A DNA stretch of 63,942 bases, counting the filler, from an uncultured Ignavibacteriales bacterium (GTDB lineage Bacteria > Zixibacteria > MSB-5A5 > GN15 > JAAZOE01): assembly GCA_964611355.1 (NCBI GenBank). It is 3 parts of 3 records of this genome, joined end to end, with 100 filler letters (N's around TTAATTAATTAA, not from the genome) between each part and the next. Parts side by side here need not be neighbours in the genome. Positions count along the whole stretch, not along the records: positions 1 to 26,202 come from CAZSYD010000032.1; 2 more parts are not named here. The stretch is one strand, 5' to 3'. Shown piece by piece: positions 5,314 through 40,070 of this stretch (the first letter of the stretch is position 1; the number at the start of each line of letters is the position of its first letter). A program made the translations under genes and the position numbers. The notes beneath the pieces were generated by a model, which was not told where the DNA came from, did not search any database, and was given only the letters and a program-made list of their open reading frames with translations.

Positions 5314-5547
5314 ATGCCCGGTATAGAAATAGATAAAGACTACTGCAAAGGTTGCGAGCAATGCGTCAGGGTTTGCCCGATGCAGATACTGGAGATGTCA
5401 AAAGAGATTAACGTCAAGGGATATTTCGTTGCTCAATTGAAGGAACCGACCCGGTGCATCGGCTGCCGGATATGCGCCATAACCTGTCCGGAGGTAGCTA
5501 TCAAAGTACACGCGCACGGAACACGGTTCGCTTTATTCGAATATTGA
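5314..5547 (+). CDS. 2[4Fe-4S] ferredoxin, delta subunit of 2-oxoacid:ferredoxin oxidoreductase
   Basis: Two CxxCxxCxxxCP motifs; operon context. Confidence 0.9.
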   Translation: MPGIEIDKDYCKGCEQCVRVCPMQILEMSKEINVKGYFVAQLKEPTRCIGCRICAITCPEVAIKVHAHGTRFALFEY

Positions 5548-5563
5548 TAGAGAGAAAATCGAG

Positions 5564-6637
5564 ATGCCCAAGAAATTGATGAAAGGCAACGAAGCGATCG
5601 GCGAGGCGGCTGTCGCCGCCGGGGCCAGGCATTATTTTGCCTATCCGATAACTCCCCAGAGCGAAGTGGCTGAGTATCTCTGCTGGCGGCTTCCGGAGGT
5701 CGGCGGCGTTTTTGTCCAGGCCGAATCGGAAGTGGCCGTGGGCAACATGTTATTTGGCGCGGCGTCTTCCGGCAAGAGGGTGTTTACGACCTCTTCCAGC
5801 CCCGGTATAAGCTTGATGCAGGAGGCGATATCATACATTGCGGGTGCCCATTTGCCGGTGGTTTTTGTCAATATCATGCGCGGCGGGCCGGGCCTTGGCG
5901 GTATTCTGCCGGCGCAGTCCGATTATATGCAGGCTGTCAAGGGCGGCGGACACGGCGATTATAAATTAATTGTTCTGGCGCCGTCATCGGTTCAGGAAGC
6001 GGTTGATCTGGTTATCCTGGCCTTTGATCTGGCTGAAAAGTACCTCGTCCCGACGATGATTATCGGCGACGGTATGATTGGGCAGATGATGGAATCGGTT
6101 GAATTTCCCGCCAAATACCGCGAAGCATCCACGCCAGAAGGTAAGGATTGGGCGCTGACCGGCGCCAAAGATCGCAAGGCGCGCATTATCAAATCGCTGT
6201 TTCTCGATCCGAAGCAGCTTGAGGATAACTGTCTTATACTGGCGCAAAAGTATAAACAGATAAAGGAGAATGAAGTCCGATACGAGTTGTACAAGGTTGC
6301 CGACGAAAACGAAATCCTGATCGTCGCGTATGGCACTGTGGCACGCATCTGCCAGACGTCAATAGATGAATTGGAAAAGGAAGGCATCAGCGTTGGCCTT
6401 TTCCGTCCCATCAGCCTTTTCCCGTTCCCCGAAAAAGAGATATTTACCGAAGCGGCCAAAAAGAATATCAAAAAGGTTTTAACCGTTGAGATGAGCGTGG
6501 GCCAGATGGTCGAGGATGTCGAAAGATGTGTCAGGGGCAAAAAACCGGTCGAATTCTACGGCCGTACCGGCGGGGTTGTCCCGAGCCCCGACGAGGTTAA
6601 GGATAAGGTTCGGGAACTCCTGAAAAGAAAGAAGTGA
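5564..6637 (+). CDS. vorB: 2-oxoacid (2-ketoisovalerate-type):ferredoxin oxidoreductase alpha subunit
   Basis: KGNEA, YPITPQSE, QAESE, RGGPGLG, KGGGHGDY. Confidence 0.85.
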   Translation: MPKKLMKGNEAIGEAAVAAGARHYFAYPITPQSEVAEYLCWRLPEVGGVFVQAESEVAVGNMLFGAASSGKRVFTTSSSPGISLMQEAISYIAGAHLPVVFVNIMRGGPGLGGILPAQSDYMQAVKGGGHGDYKLIVLAPSSVQEAVDLVILAFDLAEKYLVPTMIIGDGMIGQMMESVEFPAKYREASTPEGKDWALTGAKDRKARIIKSLFLDPKQLEDNCLILAQKYKQIKENEVRYELYKVADENEILIVAYGTVARICQTSIDELEKEGISVGLFRPISLFPFPEKEIFTEAAKKNIKKVLTVEMSVGQMVEDVERCVRGKKPVEFYGRTGGVVPSPDEVKDKVRELLKRKK

Positions 6638-6661
6638 TGGTCAAAATCGAACGGGGATAGG

Positions 6662-7423
6662 ATGTCAGACGATACAACGATAATATTTGATAGGCCGAAA
6701 GCCTTAACCGGGAACATCACCCACTATTGTCCCGGATGCACGCACGGCGTCATCCATCGGCTTGTGGCCGAATCTCTGGACGAACTGGGCTTGCGCGATA
6801 GGGCGGTGGGAGTTGCGCCGGTCGGATGTTCGGTCCTGATATATAATTATTTCAATGTCGATTTCATGGAAGCGGCGCATGGCCGCGCACCGGCGCTGGC
6901 AACCGGTTTTAAGCGGACTCGTCCCGACATGATCGTTTTTACCTACCAGGGTGATGGCGATCTGGCCTCGATCGGTACGGGCGAAATCGTCCATGCGGCC
7001 AATCGCGGCGAAAAGTTTACCACTATTTTTGTCAATAACGCCGTTTACGGCATGACCGGCGGCCAGATGGCTCCAACCACGATGCCGAATCAGAAAACGA
7101 CAACTTCGCCTGAAGGCCGCGACGTGTCTCTGGCCGGGTATCCGATCCGCATGGCCGAGCTGTTATCCACCCTGCGGACGCCGTCCTTTATCGCCCGCAC
7201 GGCGGTACATACACCGATGCACATCATCCGGTCAAAAAAAATCATCAAAAAAGCGTTCCGGCTCCAGATGGAAGGTAAGTGCTTCTCGCTGGTTGAGGTT
7301 CTTTCCACTTGCCCAACCAACTGGGGAAAGAGTCCCGAAGAGGCCTGCAAGTGGATCGCCAGTGATATGGAACCGTATTATCCTCTCGGCATTTTTAAAG
7401 ACCCTGAAGAGGAGGAAACCTGA
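6662..7423 (+). CDS. 2-oxoacid:ferredoxin oxidoreductase beta subunit (TPP-binding)
   Basis: YCPGC, YQGDGD...NN TPP motif, GMTGGQ, CPTNW. Confidence 0.9.
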   Translation: MSDDTTIIFDRPKALTGNITHYCPGCTHGVIHRLVAESLDELGLRDRAVGVAPVGCSVLIYNYFNVDFMEAAHGRAPALATGFKRTRPDMIVFTYQGDGDLASIGTGEIVHAANRGEKFTTIFVNNAVYGMTGGQMAPTTMPNQKTTTSPEGRDVSLAGYPIRMAELLSTLRTPSFIARTAVHTPMHIIRSKKIIKKAFRLQMEGKCFSLVEVLSTCPTNWGKSPEEACKWIASDMEPYYPLGIFKDPEEEET

Positions 7424-7425
7424 TT

Positions 7426-7980
7426 ATGGCCGACCAGAAGGAAGTGGTGTTCGCCGGCTTTGGAGGCCAGGGCGTCATGACGATTGGGCAACTTCTGGCC
7501 TATACGGCAATGGATGAGGGTAAACAGGTCTGCTGGATTCCTTCCTATGGTCCCGAAATGCGGGGTGGAACGGCCAACTGCACCGTGGTGGTTTCCGATC
7601 AGCGAATCGGCTCGCCGATTATCGGCAACCCGTTATCGGCCTGTGTCTTTAATCGCCCCTCGCTGGACAGGTTCGGCCCGATGGTTCGCCGGGGCGGGTT
7701 GCTTTTGATCAACAGCTCTCTGATTGACGTCACTTCCGGCCGCAACGATATCACCGAAATGCTTGTCCCTGTCAACGACATGGCTATGAAGCTCGGCAAC
7801 CTCAGGGTGGCCAATATGATCATGCTGGCTGCCTATGTTGAGGCTACCCGTATGGTCACGTTTAAGACTCTGGGAAGGATGCTTGACGATAAAATGGGCA
7901 GTCGGAAAAAAGAACTATTGGAGATAAATCACGGGGCTCTCGATGAAGGCCGCAAATTCGCCCGAAAGTCAGCGGCATAG
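7426..7980 (+). CDS. 2-oxoacid:ferredoxin oxidoreductase gamma subunit
   Basis: AGFGGQG, SYGPEMRGGTA. Confidence 0.9.
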   Translation: MADQKEVVFAGFGGQGVMTIGQLLAYTAMDEGKQVCWIPSYGPEMRGGTANCTVVVSDQRIGSPIIGNPLSACVFNRPSLDRFGPMVRRGGLLLINSSLIDVTSGRNDITEMLVPVNDMAMKLGNLRVANMIMLAAYVEATRMVTFKTLGRMLDDKMGSRKKELLEINHGALDEGRKFARKSAA

Positions 7981-7990
7981 AGGCACAAAG

Positions 7991-8449
7991 ATGACGCCAA
8001 AGATATCAGCAAGGCTGAATAAAATATTTGACAGTAATTCTCGCGAGCCGGGGTCGCTTATTGCCGTGCTTCAGGATATTCAGCGCGAATTTCATTACCT
8101 GCCGTGTGATGCGTTGACGGAAACGGCGAAAGCGCTGGATGTTCCGTTGAGCAAGGTCTTCAGCATTTCAACCTTTTATAATGCCTTCAGTCTGACGCCG
8201 CGCGGAGAAAAGATTATCCGCATCTGCAAAGGCACTGCCTGTCATATTAAGGGAGCCGACCTTGTTTTGGAACAGGTTGAATCGGGTCTCAATATCAAGG
8301 CCGGAGAGACCACGTCGGATTCGAAATTCACCATTGAGACTGTCAACTGCGTCGGCGCCTGCGCCATGGCTCCCGTGATGATCGTCGACGGCAAATATCA
8401 CGCCAACGTCCGTTGCGATCAGGCGATGAAGCTGGTGAAGAAAGGCTGA
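7991..8449 (+). CDS. NuoE/HydC-like [2Fe-2S] subunit
   Basis: CKGTAC...CVGAC cysteine pattern; TFY motif. Confidence 0.9.
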   Translation: MTPKISARLNKIFDSNSREPGSLIAVLQDIQREFHYLPCDALTETAKALDVPLSKVFSISTFYNAFSLTPRGEKIIRICKGTACHIKGADLVLEQVESGLNIKAGETTSDSKFTIETVNCVGACAMAPVMIVDGKYHANVRCDQAMKLVKKG

Positions 8450-8450
8450 G

Positions 8451-10307
8451 ATGATAATCGATACCGTTGACAAACTGGAAAAACTGCGGGCCGGTAGCCG
8501 AAAAAAGCTTGCCGCTCAGAAGAAAAAAGTACTCGTCTGCCTCGGCCCGGGATGTTTGGCCGGTGGTTCGGACGAAATTCTGGCCGAGTTCAAAAGGATA
8601 TTAAAAAGAAAAAAGATAAAAGATATTTCGCTGGAAGCTGTTAAGCAAACCGGCTGTCACGGTTTTTGCGCTCAGGGGCCCTTGGTGATTATTGAACCGG
8701 AAGGCATATTTTACACCAGGGTCAAAAAGACGGATGTAAAAGATATCATCGAGAAAACGCTTCAGAAAGGCGAGTTGATCGAAAAACTGCTGTATAGCGA
8801 TCCTGAAAACGGAAAGAGGAAAATCGCTACATACGGGGATATTCCTTTTTATGCGCGCCAGAAAAAGATTTCCCTGCGCAATGTCGGCCGGGTCGATCCC
8901 CATCAGATAACCGACTATATTGCCGCCGGCGGTTATGCGGCCATGGCTAAAGCCTTAACCCGCATGACGCCTCAGAAGGTTATCGACGAGGTTTCCAAAT
9001 CGGGATTGCGCGGCCGGGGCGGAGCCGGTTTCCCGACCGGCAGGAAATGGGCGACCTGCGCCAAAGCCGAGTCGGAAATCCGGTATGTCATCTGCAACGG
9101 CGACGAAGGCGACCCGGGCGCCTTTATGGATCGCTGCATTATGGAAGGCGATCCGCATTCGGTTCTGGAAGGGATGATTATTTGCGCCTATGCCGTCGGC
9201 TCGACGCAGGGTTATATCTACGTTCGCGAAGAATATCCCCTGGCCGTGGTTAACCTGCGGAAAGCGATTGATGCGGCCCGTGAGTACGGACTTCTCGGTG
9301 AAAATATCCTTGGGAGCGGTTTTAGCTTCGATATCAGGATAAGCGTTGGCGGCGGCGCTTTTGTTTGCGGGGAGTCGTCGGCTTTGATGAAATCGGTTGC
9401 CGGTGACGTCGGCGAACCGCGCGCCAAGTACATCAGGTCGGTTCTCAGGGGCCTGCGTGATAAACCGACGGTGCTCAACAACGTCGAATCATTTGCCACC
9501 GTGCCGGTTATTATGGAAAAAGGCGCCAGGTGGTTCACTTCGATTGGCACCAAAAAAAGCGCCGGCACCAAGGCGTTTTCGCTGGCCGGAAAAGTGAAAA
9601 ATACGGGTCTGGTCGAAGTTCCGATGGGAATCAGTCTGCGCGAGATTATTTTCGATATAGGCGGCGGTATTCCCGACGGCCGCGAGTTCAAAGCGGTACA
9701 GACCGGCGGACCATCCGGCGGTTGCCTGCCTGCCGATAAGCTCGATTTGCCGGTCGATTTCGATAGCCTCACCGAGGCCGGTTCGATGATGGGTTCGGGC
9801 GGCATGATTGTCATGGATGACCGCACATGCATGGTTGAGGTGGCGCGATACTTCCTCGAATTCCTGATGAAAGAATCGTGCGGTAAATGCGTCCCCTGCC
9901 GGGAAGGGCTGTATCAGCTTTATCGTCTGTGCACGAAAGTAACCGAGGGTGAGGCCACAGAGGAAGATCTTGACCTGATGGAACGGCTGTCCAAAGTAAT
10001 TCAGGTCGCTTCGTTATGCGGACTGGGACAATCGGGGCCGAATCCGTTCCTCAGTACCCTCAAGTATTTCCGTGATGAGTACCTGGCCCATGTTCGCGAC
10101 AAGAAATGCCCGGCCGGAGTCTGCCGCAAACTGATTACCTACGTTATCACGGACAACTGCACCGGTTGTATGGCTTGTCTCAAGGTTTGCCCGGTGGACG
10201 CCATATCGGGAGAGAAAAAGGAATTGCATGTTATCGACCAGGATAAATGCAATAGATGCGGGTCATGTTACGCCGTTTGTAACTTCGAGGCCATTGAAAT
10301 CAGATAA
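8451..10307 (+). CDS. NuoF/HydB-like FMN/NADH-binding subunit with N-terminal [2Fe-2S] and C-terminal 2[4Fe-4S] domains
   Basis: GRGGAGFPTG, GDEGDPGAFMD, ESCGKCVPC, CPAGVC, two C-terminal CxxCxxC motifs. Confidence 0.92.
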   Translation: MIIDTVDKLEKLRAGSRKKLAAQKKKVLVCLGPGCLAGGSDEILAEFKRILKRKKIKDISLEAVKQTGCHGFCAQGPLVIIEPEGIFYTRVKKTDVKDIIEKTLQKGELIEKLLYSDPENGKRKIATYGDIPFYARQKKISLRNVGRVDPHQITDYIAAGGYAAMAKALTRMTPQKVIDEVSKSGLRGRGGAGFPTGRKWATCAKAESEIRYVICNGDEGDPGAFMDRCIMEGDPHSVLEGMIICAYAVGSTQGYIYVREEYPLAVVNLRKAIDAAREYGLLGENILGSGFSFDIRISVGGGAFVCGESSALMKSVAGDVGEPRAKYIRSVLRGLRDKPTVLNNVESFATVPVIMEKGARWFTSIGTKKSAGTKAFSLAGKVKNTGLVEVPMGISLREIIFDIGGGIPDGREFKAVQTGGPSGGCLPADKLDLPVDFDSLTEAGSMMGSGGMIVMDDRTCMVEVARYFLEFLMKESCGKCVPCREGLYQLYRLCTKVTEGEATEEDLDLMERLSKVIQVASLCGLGQSGPNPFLSTLKYFRDEYLAHVRDKKCPAGVCRKLITYVITDNCTGCMACLKVCPVDAISGEKKELHVIDQDKCNRCGSCYAVCNFEAIEIR

Positions 10308-10318
10308 CCAGGTGAGAT

Positions 10319-11095
10319 ATGGTACATATCACTATAAATGGAAAAGTCGTCAAAGCCGTAGAAGGGGAGATGCTCCTGGCGGTTATTCGCAGGGAAGGGA
10401 TTGATATTCCCGCTCTATGCGACCACCCGGCGATTGAACCGGCCGGGAATTGCCGGCTCTGCATGGTGGAAATTACCAAAGAAGGATGGGGTGGCCGGAC
10501 AAAGTATGTTACATCCTGTCTTTATCCGGTTGAGGATGGCCTGATAGTCAGCACGCATACGCCGCAGTTGATCGAGATTCGCAAAACGATCCTTGACCTA
10601 TTGCTGGCCCGCAGTCCCAATTCCGAAGTCATTCAGAAAATGGCCGAGGAGTACGGCATATATAAAACCAGTTATGAAACCATCCCTGACGGCGACAACT
10701 GTATCGCCTGCTATGCCTGTACTCGCATCTGTGAAACGCTCGGCAAAAATGCTATCTCGGCGGTACTCCGCGGCCATGACAAGAAGATCGGGCCGCCGTT
10801 TGACGAACCGCCGCCCGACTGCATCGGCTGCCTTGCCTGTGCTCATATTTGTCCCACGGGTGTTATAAAGTGGCACGATAAAGACAATATCCGCACTATC
10901 TGGAACAAAGATTTTGAACTGATATCCTGCAGGTTGTGCGGCAAAAAAATCATCACCCGGGATTTTGCCGATTACCTGATCGAACAACGAAATATCCCCA
11001 AAGACTATTTTGATACCTGTGACGACTGTAAACGAGTGGAGCTGGCCGCGAAAATGGGCGGCATCGTCAATCAGGTTGAGGAGGCGGCGTCATGA
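10319..11095 (+). CDS. NuoG/HydA N-terminal-like Fe-S protein without a catalytic domain
   Basis: N-terminal [2Fe-2S] (IPALC...CRLC...TSC), two CxxCxxC motifs; no H-cluster or molybdopterin domain. Confidence 0.85.
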   Translation: MVHITINGKVVKAVEGEMLLAVIRREGIDIPALCDHPAIEPAGNCRLCMVEITKEGWGGRTKYVTSCLYPVEDGLIVSTHTPQLIEIRKTILDLLLARSPNSEVIQKMAEEYGIYKTSYETIPDGDNCIACYACTRICETLGKNAISAVLRGHDKKIGPPFDEPPPDCIGCLACAHICPTGVIKWHDKDNIRTIWNKDFELISCRLCGKKIITRDFADYLIEQRNIPKDYFDTCDDCKRVELAAKMGGIVNQVEEAAS

Positions 11096-11505
11096 TGACC
11101 TTCCGTTTGGAAATCAACCCGGCTTTATGCACCGGTTGCCGCACCTGTGAATTGGCCTGCGCCTTCACTCACACAAAAAACCAAAAACCGGGTCGAAGCC
11201 GCATCTATCCGATCGCTTACGCCCCCGATAAGTATGTTCCGGTAACCTGTCTTCAGTGCGACGATCCCGCCTGCGTCAAGTCGTGTATGTTTGACGCTCT
11301 CAGGCGGAATGAACAGACCGGCGCCATTGAACGAGATATGGAACGTTGCGTCAAATGCGGGGCCTGCGTGGCCGCCTGTCCGTTCGGCTGTGCGCTCGTG
11401 GATGACGTCCACGACGAGATTGTCAAATGCGACCTGTGCGGTGGAGATCCCGCATGCGCCCGATTTTGCCCGACAAAAGCGCTGGAATACAAGAGAATCG
11501 CCTGA
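11092..11505 (+). CDS. Multi-[4Fe-4S] electron transfer protein (DmsB/CooF-like)
   Basis: CTGCRTC, CLQC, CVKCGAC, KCDLC...CPT. Confidence 0.9.
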   Translation: MMTFRLEINPALCTGCRTCELACAFTHTKNQKPGRSRIYPIAYAPDKYVPVTCLQCDDPACVKSCMFDALRRNEQTGAIERDMERCVKCGACVAACPFGCALVDDVHDEIVKCDLCGGDPACARFCPTKALEYKRIA

Positions 11506-14891: not shown

Positions 14892-14919
14892 TTGAAATTA
14901 ACCTGAGATACATTATACT
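14892..14919 (+). promoter_or_regulatory. Sigma70-type promoter of the DUF1573 gene
   Basis: TTGAAA-N16-TATACT. Confidence 0.5.
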
Positions 14920-14976
14920 GAAACCGTTGCAGCCGATATCGGTAAAATAAGCATGCCCGCTCAGTTGGAGGATAAA

Positions 14977-15711
14977 ATGCAAAGAACCCTTTGGCTTGCT
15001 TCTCTGATTATTGTTGCTCTCTTTTTCTTTTCTTCTTTAGTATCAGCTCAGCCAAAAATGTCTATTTCGGGGGATTATTTCGACTTCGGCTACGTTCCTC
15101 AGGAATCCAAGTTATCCCATACTTTCTGGATAAAATCGGTCGGGACAGACACCCTGAAAATTATCGACATAAAACCCGGGTGAAGCTGCACCAAGGCTCC
15201 CGTAGAAAAAAGGGAGCTTGCTGTCGGTGACAGCACCGGTGTCGAAATTATATACACGCTGGGCAGACGGGTCGGAATTTCAAGCAAGAAACCGACTATT
15301 ATAACCAACGAAGGACCGACTCGCCGGAGAGTTACAATTGAAGCCAACGCTGTTCGCGCACCGGATTCCACATATCCGATTATCATAAAACCCTATAAAA
15401 TTTATGTCTCGAAAGCGGGCGAGATTGAAGTGGATATGGGGGAATTTACGATAAGAAACGTTTCGCCCGAAAACCTTGAAATCAAAGTTGTCAGTCAACC
15501 TTACGGATATTTCAAACTGGACATTCCCAAAGAGGTCAAGGCCGACCAGGCGATCAAATGCAAATTGAAAGTCAACAAGGATAAATTAAAGGAAGAGTTT
15601 CAAAAGTCGATTACCATCGAGCTAAACGATGCCGCCAAAACCCGGTTTACAATTCCCGTGATAAGGCGGTTTATCGGTGTCAAACCCGGCGGCCAATCAA
15701 CTTCAAAATAG
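14977..15711 (+). CDS. Exported DUF1573-family protein, probable selenoprotein (UGA at 15181-15183, PG-U-SCT)
   Basis: GGAGG RBS; signal peptide; FDFGYV...GTDTLKI DUF1573 pattern; frame stays open after TGA and joins ORF 15430-15711; TGA occupies the first Cys of the family CxC motif. Confidence 0.8.
15192..15220 (+). promoter_or_regulatory. Putative bacterial SECIS element
   Basis: GCTCCC/GGGAGC stem extended by CAA/TTG; the loop starts with G, 18 nt after the UGA. Confidence 0.65.
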
Positions 15712-15720
15712 CTGTAACCT

Positions 15721-15747
15721 CCCCGCCTGGCTCAAACTCAGGCGGGG
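15721..15747. terminator. Hairpin between convergent genes
   Basis: CCCCGCCTG/CAGGCGGGG 9-bp stem. Confidence 0.65.
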
Positions 15748-37988: not shown

Positions 37989-38234
37989 TGTACTATTTAT
38001 CGGTTGCGACCATCCAAAAATTTATTAAAATACACCCAATGCCTTGCCCGGTCAATACCCATTCAATAAACATTTGTAATAAATCATCGTTCCCGAAAGA
38101 CGGGCATCGCACTTGACATTATCTTTAATATTGGATAGCTTTTTGCGTTAAATTGCGATTTGAAATCGGTTAACCTTGGACGTCATTGTTCCGATTTTAG
38201 TATAAAAGAATATTGCCACACCGGAGAAAAGTAT

Positions 38235-40070
38235 TTGGGTAGATTTTCCGAGTTTAAAAGAACCGTCACCTGCGGGGAACTGAGCGACAAGGAGATCGGG
38301 AAAAAAGTTACTCTCAACGGATGGGTACAGGAATACCGCAATCTGGGAGGCATACTTTTTATTGATCTGCGGGATCGCTACGGCGTTACTCAGGTTGTCT
38401 TTCATCCCGAGCATGTTTCCGGGGAAGCCATGGACAGCGCCGCCGCCTGCCGGCACGAATATGTCATCGCGGTCAAAGGCGAGGTCCGCTCCCGACCGGA
38501 AGGCACGGTTAATACAAAAATGAAAACCGGCGCTATCGAGGTCGAGTGTTCGGAAATCGAAATATTATCGGAAGCGGAAACGCCGCCGTTTGAGATCGCC
38601 GACGAAATCAACGCCAGGGAAGACCTGCGTCTTGAATACCGTTATCTTGACCTGCGCCGCAAGCCGCTCCAGGAAAGAATCCGTATCCGCCACGAAGCCG
38701 CCATGGCCGTGCGCGAGTATTTGACAAGTCGCGGCTTTTACGAAATCGAAACGCCGATGCTTATCCGTTCCACACCGGAAGGCGCGCGCGATTACGTCGT
38801 CCCCAGCCGGGTGCAACCGGGAAGATTCTACGCTCTGCCGCAGTCGCCGCAGCTTTTGAAACAGATTTTGATGATATCCGGATTCGACCGATATTTCCAA
38901 CTGGCCCGCTGCCTGCGCGATGAAGACCTGCGTACAGACCGCCAGCCGGAACATACCCAGATCGACATGGAAATGTCGTTTGTCACGCCGGAAGACGTCT
39001 TCGAGGTCGCCGAAGGAATGCTGGCTTACCTCTGGGAAAAGGTTCTTGGAATCAGGATTACCACCCCTTTCCCGCGTTATACGTACCGTGAGGTAATGAA
39101 CCGCTGGGGTATCGATAAGCCGGATGTTCGTTTCGATATGGAGATTGTCGATTTATCGGACGAGGTGGCCGGATGCGGATTTAAGATATTTACCTCCACC
39201 CTCGAAAAGGGCGGATGCGTGAAAGCGATAATATTTCCCGGCGGCGCCAACCTGTCCCGCAGGCAGATTGGCGATCTCGAAAATCTGGCAAAAGAGCATG
39301 GCGCCGGGGGGCTGGCCTGCCTGCTGCGCACCAAAGATGACGAAATCAAAGGCCCCGTTCTGAAATTCATCGGTCAGGACATGGCGCGGAAAATCCTTGC
39401 GAAAACCAAAGCCAACCCGGGCGATGCGGTACTTATCATCGCCGACAGGCCGCTTAAAACCGAATCGATTCTTGGTCAACTGCGCCTTCATCTGGGCAAA
39501 ACCGGCGGATTGATTGATACCTCGCGCTGGGGATTTCTCTGGGTGACCCGTTTTCCGCTTTTTGAATATGACGAAGAGACCGGCGCCTTTAACGCCATGC
39601 ATAATATCGTTTCCAGCCCGTGCGAAGAGGACCTCGATCTGCTGGAGGAGGGATTCGCCACAGATTTGAAACCTTCCGATCCCGGTCACCCCTGGCAAAG
39701 AGTTCGGGCCGAACAGTATGATTTGGTCCTAAACGGCAGCGAAATCGCCTCCGGCGGCATTCGTATCCATAAAAGCGAACTGCAGAAAAAGGTTCTCAAT
39801 ATCCTTGGTTTATCGGATGAACGGGCCGAAAAGATGTTCGGTTTTCTTCTGCGTGCGCTCAAGTACGGCGCTCCGCCGCACGGCGGCCTGGCGCCCGGTT
39901 TTGATCGCATCGTCGCTTTGATGACCGGCACCGACTTGATTCGCGAAGTTATCGCCTTTCCCAAAACGACCAACGCCTCCTCGCTTATGGATGGCGCTCC
40001 ATCGGAGATCGAACCGGAGCAGTTAAACGAACTGGGGCTTTCAATCGTAAAAAAATCGGAAACTCCATGA
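38235..40070 (+). CDS. aspS: Aspartyl-tRNA synthetase
   Basis: FIDLRD, STPEGARD, LPQSPQ, GAPPHGG...DR; TTG start after GGAG. Confidence 0.97.
   Translation: MGRFSEFKRTVTCGELSDKEIGKKVTLNGWVQEYRNLGGILFIDLRDRYGVTQVVFHPEHVSGEAMDSAAACRHEYVIAVKGEVRSRPEGTVNTKMKTGAIEVECSEIEILSEAETPPFEIADEINAREDLRLEYRYLDLRRKPLQERIRIRHEAAMAVREYLTSRGFYEIETPMLIRSTPEGARDYVVPSRVQPGRFYALPQSPQLLKQILMISGFDRYFQLARCLRDEDLRTDRQPEHTQIDMEMSFVTPEDVFEVAEGMLAYLWEKVLGIRITTPFPRYTYREVMNRWGIDKPDVRFDMEIVDLSDEVAGCGFKIFTSTLEKGGCVKAIIFPGGANLSRRQIGDLENLAKEHGAGGLACLLRTKDDEIKGPVLKFIGQDMARKILAKTKANPGDAVLIIADRPLKTESILGQLRLHLGKTGGLIDTSRWGFLWVTRFPLFEYDEETGAFNAMHNIVSSPCEEDLDLLEEGFATDLKPSDPGHPWQRVRAEQYDLVLNGSEIASGGIRIHKSELQKKVLNILGLSDERAEKMFGFLLRALKYGAPPHGGLAPGFDRIVALMTGTDLIREVIAFPKTTNASSLMDGAPSEIEPEQLNELGLSIVKKSETP

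Follow-up and report, generated by a model that had tools for sequence, protein, structure and literature searches.

A DUF1573 selenoprotein gene of Zixibacteria with a putative, displaced two-hairpin SECIS element

Introduction

In the genome of an uncultured member of the Zixibacteria, the reading frame of a predicted exported protein is broken by a single TGA codon. Does this codon end the protein or is it read as selenocysteine (Sec), and, in the latter case, which of the hairpins that follow it would be bound by SelB, and what might the protein do in the cell envelope? The gene was studied in a stretch of DNA of 63,942 nt, here called the window, which consists of several contigs joined with N spacers, contig C32 accounting for positions 1-26202 only. 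All positions below are window positions unless a locus name precedes them. A sequence-only reading of the window had taken two open reading frames, 14953-15183 and 15430-15711, for the halves of one hidden selenoprotein gene with a SECIS-like hairpin just 3' of the UGA.

One reading frame interrupted by a single TGA codon

The gene and its immediate surroundings comprise the following features:

14892..14919, + strand: sigma-70-like promoter match from a promoter scan (TTGAAA, 16 nt, TATACT; 10/12)
14967..14972, + strand: Shine-Dalgarno sequence GGAGGA, 4 nt upstream of the ATG at 14977, from the sequence
14977..15711, + strand: gene of 244 codons for a two-domain DUF1573 protein with presumed Sec at residue 69
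15181..15183, + strand: in-frame TGA, presumed Sec69, placed by the model in a turn between strands 60-66 and 71-76
15187..15189, + strand: Cys71, the partner residue in the U-x-C motif, invariant among 79 aligned proteins
15721..15747, + strand: GC-rich 9-bp inverted repeat, probable terminator, from the sequence; a convergent WD40/PD40 gene lies beyond

The sole interruption of the frame 14977-15711 (+) is the TGA at 15181-15183, codon 69 from the ATG at 14977. Read as U, it yields one frame of 244 amino acids with IKPG-U-SCTK around residue 69, ending at the TAG at 15709-15711. The proposal of a single frame broken by TGA alone is borne out, and the coordinates of the two split open reading frames agree with it. 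The promoter match is weak, because the scan gave four promoter-like sites against 2.0 ± 1.4 in shuffled sequences, and the inverted repeat is absent from the output of a terminator scan. The gene is flanked by a Mut7-C gene on one side and the WD40/PD40 gene on the other, an arrangement that forms no informative operon. Further upstream, positions 5314-11505 contain 2-oxoacid:ferredoxin oxidoreductase genes, then NuoE/F/G-like or bifurcating-module genes and a gene for a 4Fe-4S protein, all named from their translations.

The codon is also found in contigs from three of four other runs (X2, X3 and X4) with no alternative letter, the fourth (X5) having no coverage; this agreement is one of assembled contigs, not raw reads, and the runs may share one sampling campaign. 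The six runs that contain at least half of the stretch are salt-marsh metagenomes, one of them a possible source of it, and no RNA run is among the 24 runs listed, a result with no bearing on expression.

Selenocysteine at codon 69

The residue-69 column was compared across 158 distinct homologous sites of Zixibacteria, that is, the loci fetched, with fetching favouring the best hits. It holds TGA at 68 sites, TGC at 66, TGT at 19 and another codon at 5, and TAA or TAG at none of the 158. The pairing of UGA with Cys that a selenoprotein family should display is present (68 TGA and 85 Cys copies), and the TGA copies have no further stop, their frames being intact on both sides. The motif is U-G-C in 67 of the 68 TGA copies, the window copy having U-S-C. 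Among the 79 aligned proteins C71 is invariant and C69/U69 nearly so; five divergent paralogues have N, S or G in place of the first Cys. A homologue occurs in every genome sampled from the order (151/151) and from the phylum (121/121), and TGA copies extend to each of the order's four families and to four more families outside the order. The named relatives of the window protein are Zixibacteria, with few records labelled otherwise.

The machinery for Sec insertion, which the sequence-only reading had named as a check, is complete in the genome itself (G000). It encodes selA (509 bits), selB (343.5 bits), tRNA-Sec (73.4 bits), the product of selC, and a selD with a TGA of its own; selA and selB are adjacent on contig C10, which also carries the tRNA-Sec gene, and selD lies on C13. 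The selB search also returned two near-equal EF-Tu-like matches on one contig (G000:C16:22341-23225 and 38184-39068). Across the wider sample, selA scores above the cut-off in 141/151 genomes of the order and 116/121 of the phylum sample. No selA or selB and no tRNA-Sec above the cut-off turned up in two draft genomes that have TGA copies, G025 (93% complete) and G173 (100% complete by markers), and G162 has tRNA-Sec without a selA or selB hit. As G025 carries a TGA-bearing selD and PrxU, a missing contig is likely there. The own genome also encodes a PrxU peroxiredoxin selenoprotein (L100:599-1198 (-) = G000:C78; 363.6 bits versus 270), whose SECIS loop lies at 17 nt. A coding-score scan for its selenoproteome was noisy, with SelD and a paralogue on contig C5 missed among the matches listed, and provides no census.

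Judged from sequence comparison, three marks of a UGA-encoded selenoprotein are found here: a column in which UGA alternates with Cys, the sel genes and a stem-loop conserved in the UGA copies only. The stop codon at 15181-15183 is very likely decoded as Sec.

Two hairpins downstream of the UGA

Two hairpins follow the codon:

15194..15219, + strand: hairpin H1, 8 bp with a 10-nt loop; likely a spacer, its stem selected and covarying and its loop sequence free
15220..15234, + strand: hairpin H2, 6 bp with a GGU triloop at 15226-15228, 42 nt past the UGA; likely the SelB-binding SECIS loop

Both are present as first described: the core of H1 pairs GCTCCC (15196-15201) with GGGAGC (15212-15217) around a 10-nt loop that opens with G 18 nt past the UGA, and H2 (GCTGTC/GACAGC) lies directly 3' of it. 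The folding z-score is -3.25 for 15181-15250 (1/200 shuffles as good) and -3.69 for 15184-15250 (0/200 shuffles as good). To judge which hairpin carries the signal, the 68 TGA copies were set against 41 Cys copies with the motif C-[GS]-C-T-[KQR]-[AVIMT]-P, 49 other non-TGA sites being excluded as too divergent. H2 is fully paired in 67/68 TGA copies versus 3/41 of these close Cys copies, and random synonymous recoding leaves it paired in a mean of 2.9 and a maximum of 9 of 68. Its loop reads GGU in 56 of the TGA copies, GGC in 8, GGA in 3 and GGG in 1, and it stands at 42 nt in 63/68 TGA copies passing the filter. The H1 core is fully paired in 48/68 TGA versus 8/41 Cys copies (recoded mean 5.2), and one H1 pair shows two-sided change in 11 cells, a value reached in 0/500 shuffles, which treat related sequences as independent.

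There are no two-sided pair changes in H2, because H2 is nearly invariant. Its support is constraint at synonymous sites, and the encoded A-V-G-D-S could also be selected in the protein; among six Cys copies that still encode AVGDS, three use other codons and have lost H2. RNAalifold recovers H2 and not H1, proposing a weak 4-pair 5' stem instead. A long stem between the bases after the UGA and the H2 region, which appears in some single-sequence folds, was rejected, being neither conserved nor returned by RNAalifold. The same arrangement recurs in metagenomes. A pattern of UGA context and H2, with the spacer free between 27 and 33 nt and H1 left out, matched at least 125 stretches. All but one of the 80 fetched belong to the DUF1573 clade, with a spacer of exactly 30, and these 79 are 32-61% identical to P0001. 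Of the 69 copies that are new and distinct, 60 keep the covarying H1 pair (U-A 38, A-U 11, G-C 6 and G-U 5).

Two other accounts of the codon and its context were weighed against these data. An ordinary SECIS, with H1 as the SelB site and H2 kept by protein constraint or ribosome pausing, was in essence the first proposal, and it has the position of the H1 loop in its favour, 18 nt past the UGA and within the consensus range of 16-37 nt, with G first in the window copy; the H1 stem is also under selection in TGA copies. That G, however, opens the loop in only 1/68 TGA copies and 3/69 metagenomic copies, which rules it out as a conserved SelB site, the conserved G-loop being that of H2, and the window H1 loop has 10 nt where the consensus model has 3-9. 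When H1 is extended, a G-loop hairpin in the consensus range can be formed in 26/68 TGA copies (38%), but this is little enriched over the Cys copies (11/41, 27%), and in the window copy no hairpin qualifies at 16-37 nt. Together with the loss of H2 from Cys copies that keep AVGDS, these counts make an ordinary SECIS unlikely. A genuine stop, whether by pseudogene, split gene or sequencing error, or a UGA read as Cys or Trp, is hardly credible. Public gene calls do stop or restart at this site, and tRNA-ReC systems exist in which UGA, accompanied by a SECIS, is read as Cys, as the available part of PMC13582414 describes; against this, the TGA is kept in 68 copies phylum-wide with no TAA or TAG, three other assemblies carry it, and the only UCA-anticodon tRNA that ARAGORN finds in the own genome is the tRNA-Sec, alongside a normal tRNA-Trp(CCA). 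The sequence data rather argue for Sec insertion through H2, which probably binds SelB, with H1 acting as a spacer that takes up 26 nt.

Two Ig-like domains behind a predicted signal peptide

The encoded protein divides into three parts:

14977..15048, + strand: predicted signal peptide of the Sec pathway, covering residues 1-24, with cleavage at V-S-A/Q and without a lipobox Cys, judged by general rules
15052..15348, + strand: Ig-like domain 1 (DUF1573; ASH/PapD-like fold), residues about 26-124, from Pfam and the match to 2qsv
15373..15672, + strand: Ig-like domain 2, residues about 133-232, from the model and fold comparison

With 82.8 bits the protein scores above the gathering cut-off of Pfam DUF1573 (PF07610), 26.1. 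Hydropathy peaks at 3.0 at the N-terminus and reaches at most 1.18 past residue 30, giving no other hydrophobic segment after the signal peptide; the modelled N-terminal helix covers residues 2-19, and the N-termini of homologues also support a signal peptide. The AlphaFold model, built with C in place of U from an alignment of 79 sequences, has a mean pLDDT of 93.2 and shows two beta-sandwiches after the N-terminal helix; residue 69 sits in a turn that precedes strand 71-76. The mature protein contains one His, two Met and only one further Cys. PDB sequence searches with the protein gave no useful match (best E 0.91 and 0.45), and a search of the ESM Atlas returned nothing beyond DUF1573/ASH clusters.

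The signal-peptide-like N-terminus, taken with the Sec column and machinery, supports the proposed 244-aa selenoprotein with a signal peptide. That standard annotation would split such a gene also holds: 39/117 database homologues are shorter than 200 aa, and nearly all of these begin just past the Sec site. At the other extreme of length, the proteins P0120, P0137, P0166, P0227 and P0240 have 1771-5376 aa, with 11-19 profile-matching stretches each.

Paralogues and the origin of the window copy

The genome encodes two paralogues of the window protein, both on contig C5, one with TGA (G-U-G-C, 57% identical) and one a distant Cys copy; the count of further TGA-bearing DUF1573 genes, which the sequence-only reading had left to be made, is one. 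This second Sec copy (L067:6085-6849 (-) = G000:C5:21084-21848; H2 loop GGC) occupies the ancestral locus, the one typical of the relatives, which faces GWxTD and MacB-type ABC genes in convergent orientation and is often preceded by lexA; in these neighbourhoods the ORF caller often picked an opposite-strand frame instead of the split gene. In a tree of 156 proteins (FastTree, unrooted, with long branches) the window copy is sister to the C5 copy (support 91). Since it is isolated from that neighbourhood and sister to the C5 copy, the window gene is likely a lineage-specific duplicate that moved off the ancestral locus.

Sec and Cys copies interleave on the tree, with 23 changes, at least 18 of them forced by starred branches, and Cys copies often stand in tandem with, and are sister to, a Sec copy. 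L031, L077 and L090, three Cys copies nearest to Sec copies, still have an intact H2 and are likely recent Sec-to-Cys reversions. The family has likely undergone repeated duplication and Sec-to-Cys reversion, a direction read from the leftover hairpin, as the tree is unrooted. Young Cys copies that still carry the hairpin, repeated duplication and likely reversion would together offer a dated series of SECIS decay. At three loci, L064 (G022:C1:2434084-2437422), L069 and L092, tandem arrays of three to four paralogues mix Sec and Cys forms.

Proposed mechanism and function

We propose that SelB binds the GGU triloop of H2, 42 nt downstream of the UGA. H1 would fold 26 nt of coding sequence aside, so that H2 then begins approximately where the SECIS stem of SelD begins; this recoding geometry, with H2 bound by SelB and H1 as a fold-out, is probably correct in the light of the conservation data. 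Decoding of the UGA would yield an exported protein of two Ig domains whose U-x-C loop is a periplasmic selenol/thiol redox site. After export, U69 and C71 would cycle between selenol/thiol and selenosulfide; the PapD-like Ig domains may hold envelope proteins whose oxidised cysteines are thereby reduced or rearranged. Such a periplasmic redox role is a tentative prediction, to which we give slightly less than even odds. The overall explanation, combining Sec69, a displaced SECIS, the predicted redox role and a relocated duplicate, is the one we favour, with a probability of about 60%.

The surroundings of some relatives touch on the same subject. Five loci of a Cys paralogue clade (L043-L047) place the gene between signal peptidase I and ccmA-B-C...F, in a dxr-rseP-lepB operon; at a sixth (L048) the Cys paralogue follows signal peptidase copies in the same order. 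One Sec copy (L095) adjoins a thioredoxin-like gene. Elsewhere in the own genome, L099:3761-4723 (-) = G000:C7:36760-37722 encodes a predicted exported thioredoxin-fold and TPR protein with W-U-x-x-C, whose TGA is shared by members from three of the order's families, other members having no stop, and whose SECIS loop lies at 23 nt. It reached no NCBIfam cut-off, and is possibly an unlisted envelope selenoprotein; it could be a redox partner of the DUF1573 selenoprotein.

Other functions can be read from the same protein. U69 and C71 may bind a soft metal or metalloid (As(III), Cu(I) or Hg), which the protein would trap in the periplasm or pass to a transporter. This reading draws on two Sec copies of other orders that stand within ArsR operons, one (L083) with ArsR, LMWPc-type ArsC, MacB-type ABC genes, the Sec gene, an Acr3/SBF transporter and Usp, the other (L095) with ArsR, the Sec gene, the thioredoxin-like gene, MacB-type ABC genes, ArsR and ArsP. 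Both copies are on long branches and possibly mobile. An ArsR context is confined to 2/48 relatives' loci in neighbourhood clustering, however, the usual locus being that beside GWxTD and MacB genes, and the mature protein has few residues with which to bind a metal, so that a metal site appears somewhat unlikely. Alternatively, the protein could be a structural envelope component or an adhesin-like spacer, in which U69-C71 merely provides a stabilising selenosulfide. Its nearest folds are indeed non-enzymatic Ig domains (Hydin, CEP192, VesB, S-layer), and proteins as long as 5376 aa contain the domain in extended tandem arrays. But keeping a Sec codon has a cost and as a rule points to a reactive residue, and here codon and two-hairpin signal are kept phylum-wide; moreover, a bond that joins residues only two positions apart is strained and contributes little to stability. 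A purely structural role is quite improbable on these grounds, and the redox site remains the reading that we prefer.

As to the RNA, we somewhat favour the view that a phylum-wide clade uses a distinct SECIS class, in which 14 codons separate the UGA from the SelB hairpin, and the latter is brought within reach by an adapter hairpin, free in its loop, that folds away the coding sequence in between. If so, such genes escape consensus SECIS searches, and the constraint on amino acids beside the Sec site is loosened. Should a hairpin be able to act as a spacer and so displace the SelB loop, a second model would be required in SECIS finders, and the design of Sec insertion would gain an option. 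The protein itself, the product of a core and mostly mis-annotated gene of Zixibacteria, adds range only; of greater use is the RNA signal.

Comparison with known selenoproteins and SECIS elements

The novelty implied by the sequence-only reading does not stand, and published listings of DUF1573/OS_HP2 rule out a new family. OS_HP2 was reported in 2007 from Olavius symbionts (PMC1976440) and tabulated in 2008 as pfam07610 with UxC (PMC2398784), and a 'DUF1573 domain-containing protein, UGC' appears in tables of two reviews (PMC9312934, PMC13188914); further related papers are PMC4607533 and PMC10434189. In the available parts of these sources OS_HP2 is a predicted selenoprotein only, with no function assigned, as is the case for the window clade. 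The window gene is very likely, on sequence grounds, a real selenoprotein gene of this listed and so far only predicted family, and supplementary selenoproteome tables in the literature may already list Zixibacteria. OS_HP2 (NCBIfam NF041425) shares with the clade DUF1573 and U-x-C, 67/68 of the clade's TGA copies being U-G-C as listed, whereas the window copy has U-S-C, a comparison made through the listed motif only. The hosts also differ, deltaproteobacterial symbionts of Olavius as against Zixibacteria. At 65.3 bits the window protein is below the NF041425 cut-off of 100, as are all 44 homologues shorter than 290 aa (best 84.0), and five long repeat proteins pass only through summed domains. 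Because of these sub-cut-off scores the window protein is OS_HP2-like, yet not filed under that model.

Selenoproteins with a signal peptide have likewise been described in bacteria. SaoC and SaoX resemble the window protein in carrying a signal peptide and in being truncated in databases; in contrast to it they have unrelated folds and motifs and, in the available part of the source, are mostly Firmicutes lipoproteins of a nine-gene system (bioRxiv 10.1101/2022.07.06.499078). In structure, the closest likeness is to P. gingivalis 2QSV, with which the beta-sandwich is shared (2qsv_A: Z 13.3, rmsd 2.2, 101 aligned), and the ASH/PapD-like domains of Hydin, CEP192 and VesB match the model at Z 11-12. 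However, 2QSV, Hydin, CEP192, VesB and MSP are at most 21% identical to the window protein, none is a known selenoprotein, and the Ig fold reveals no function. A thioredoxin-fold oxidoreductase (Trx fold with CxxC or UxxC) differs from the window protein in both respects, the model being all-beta with two domains and the motif U-x-C.

The bacterial SECIS consensus, in the available part of a 2026 review, has a loop of 3-9 nt, a stem of 4-16 bp, a G in the first two loop positions, a distance of 16-37 nt from the UGA and an energy of at most -7.5 kcal/mol (PMC13188914), the same UGA-to-loop spacing being given in PMC10778597. H2 agrees with it in loop size, stem (6 bp), G and energy (-9.5), but its spacing, fixed at 42 nt, falls outside the range, with a covarying hairpin between UGA and loop; H1 of the window copy differs in its longer loop and in a G that is not conserved. 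An Rfam scan of the window locus found no family, and a two-hairpin SECIS displaced in this way is not described in the open-access literature searched. The form of H2 is familiar, nevertheless: the 7-bp/GGU form is that of the SaoC SECIS (bioRxiv 10.1101/2022.07.06.499078) and of the order's own SelD SECIS, a GGU, GGC or GUU triloop on about 7 bp. The SelD loop, however, lies 20 nt past the UGA (in 26/28) instead of 42 nt; those of PrxU and the thioredoxin-TPR gene in the order lie at 17 nt (18/19) and 23 nt (7/8). The same review states that some genes fail the consensus model and that other SECIS classes may exist (PMC13188914). The arrangement proposed here, with 137 distinct natural variants (68 + 69), would be a concrete case of such 'other classes'.
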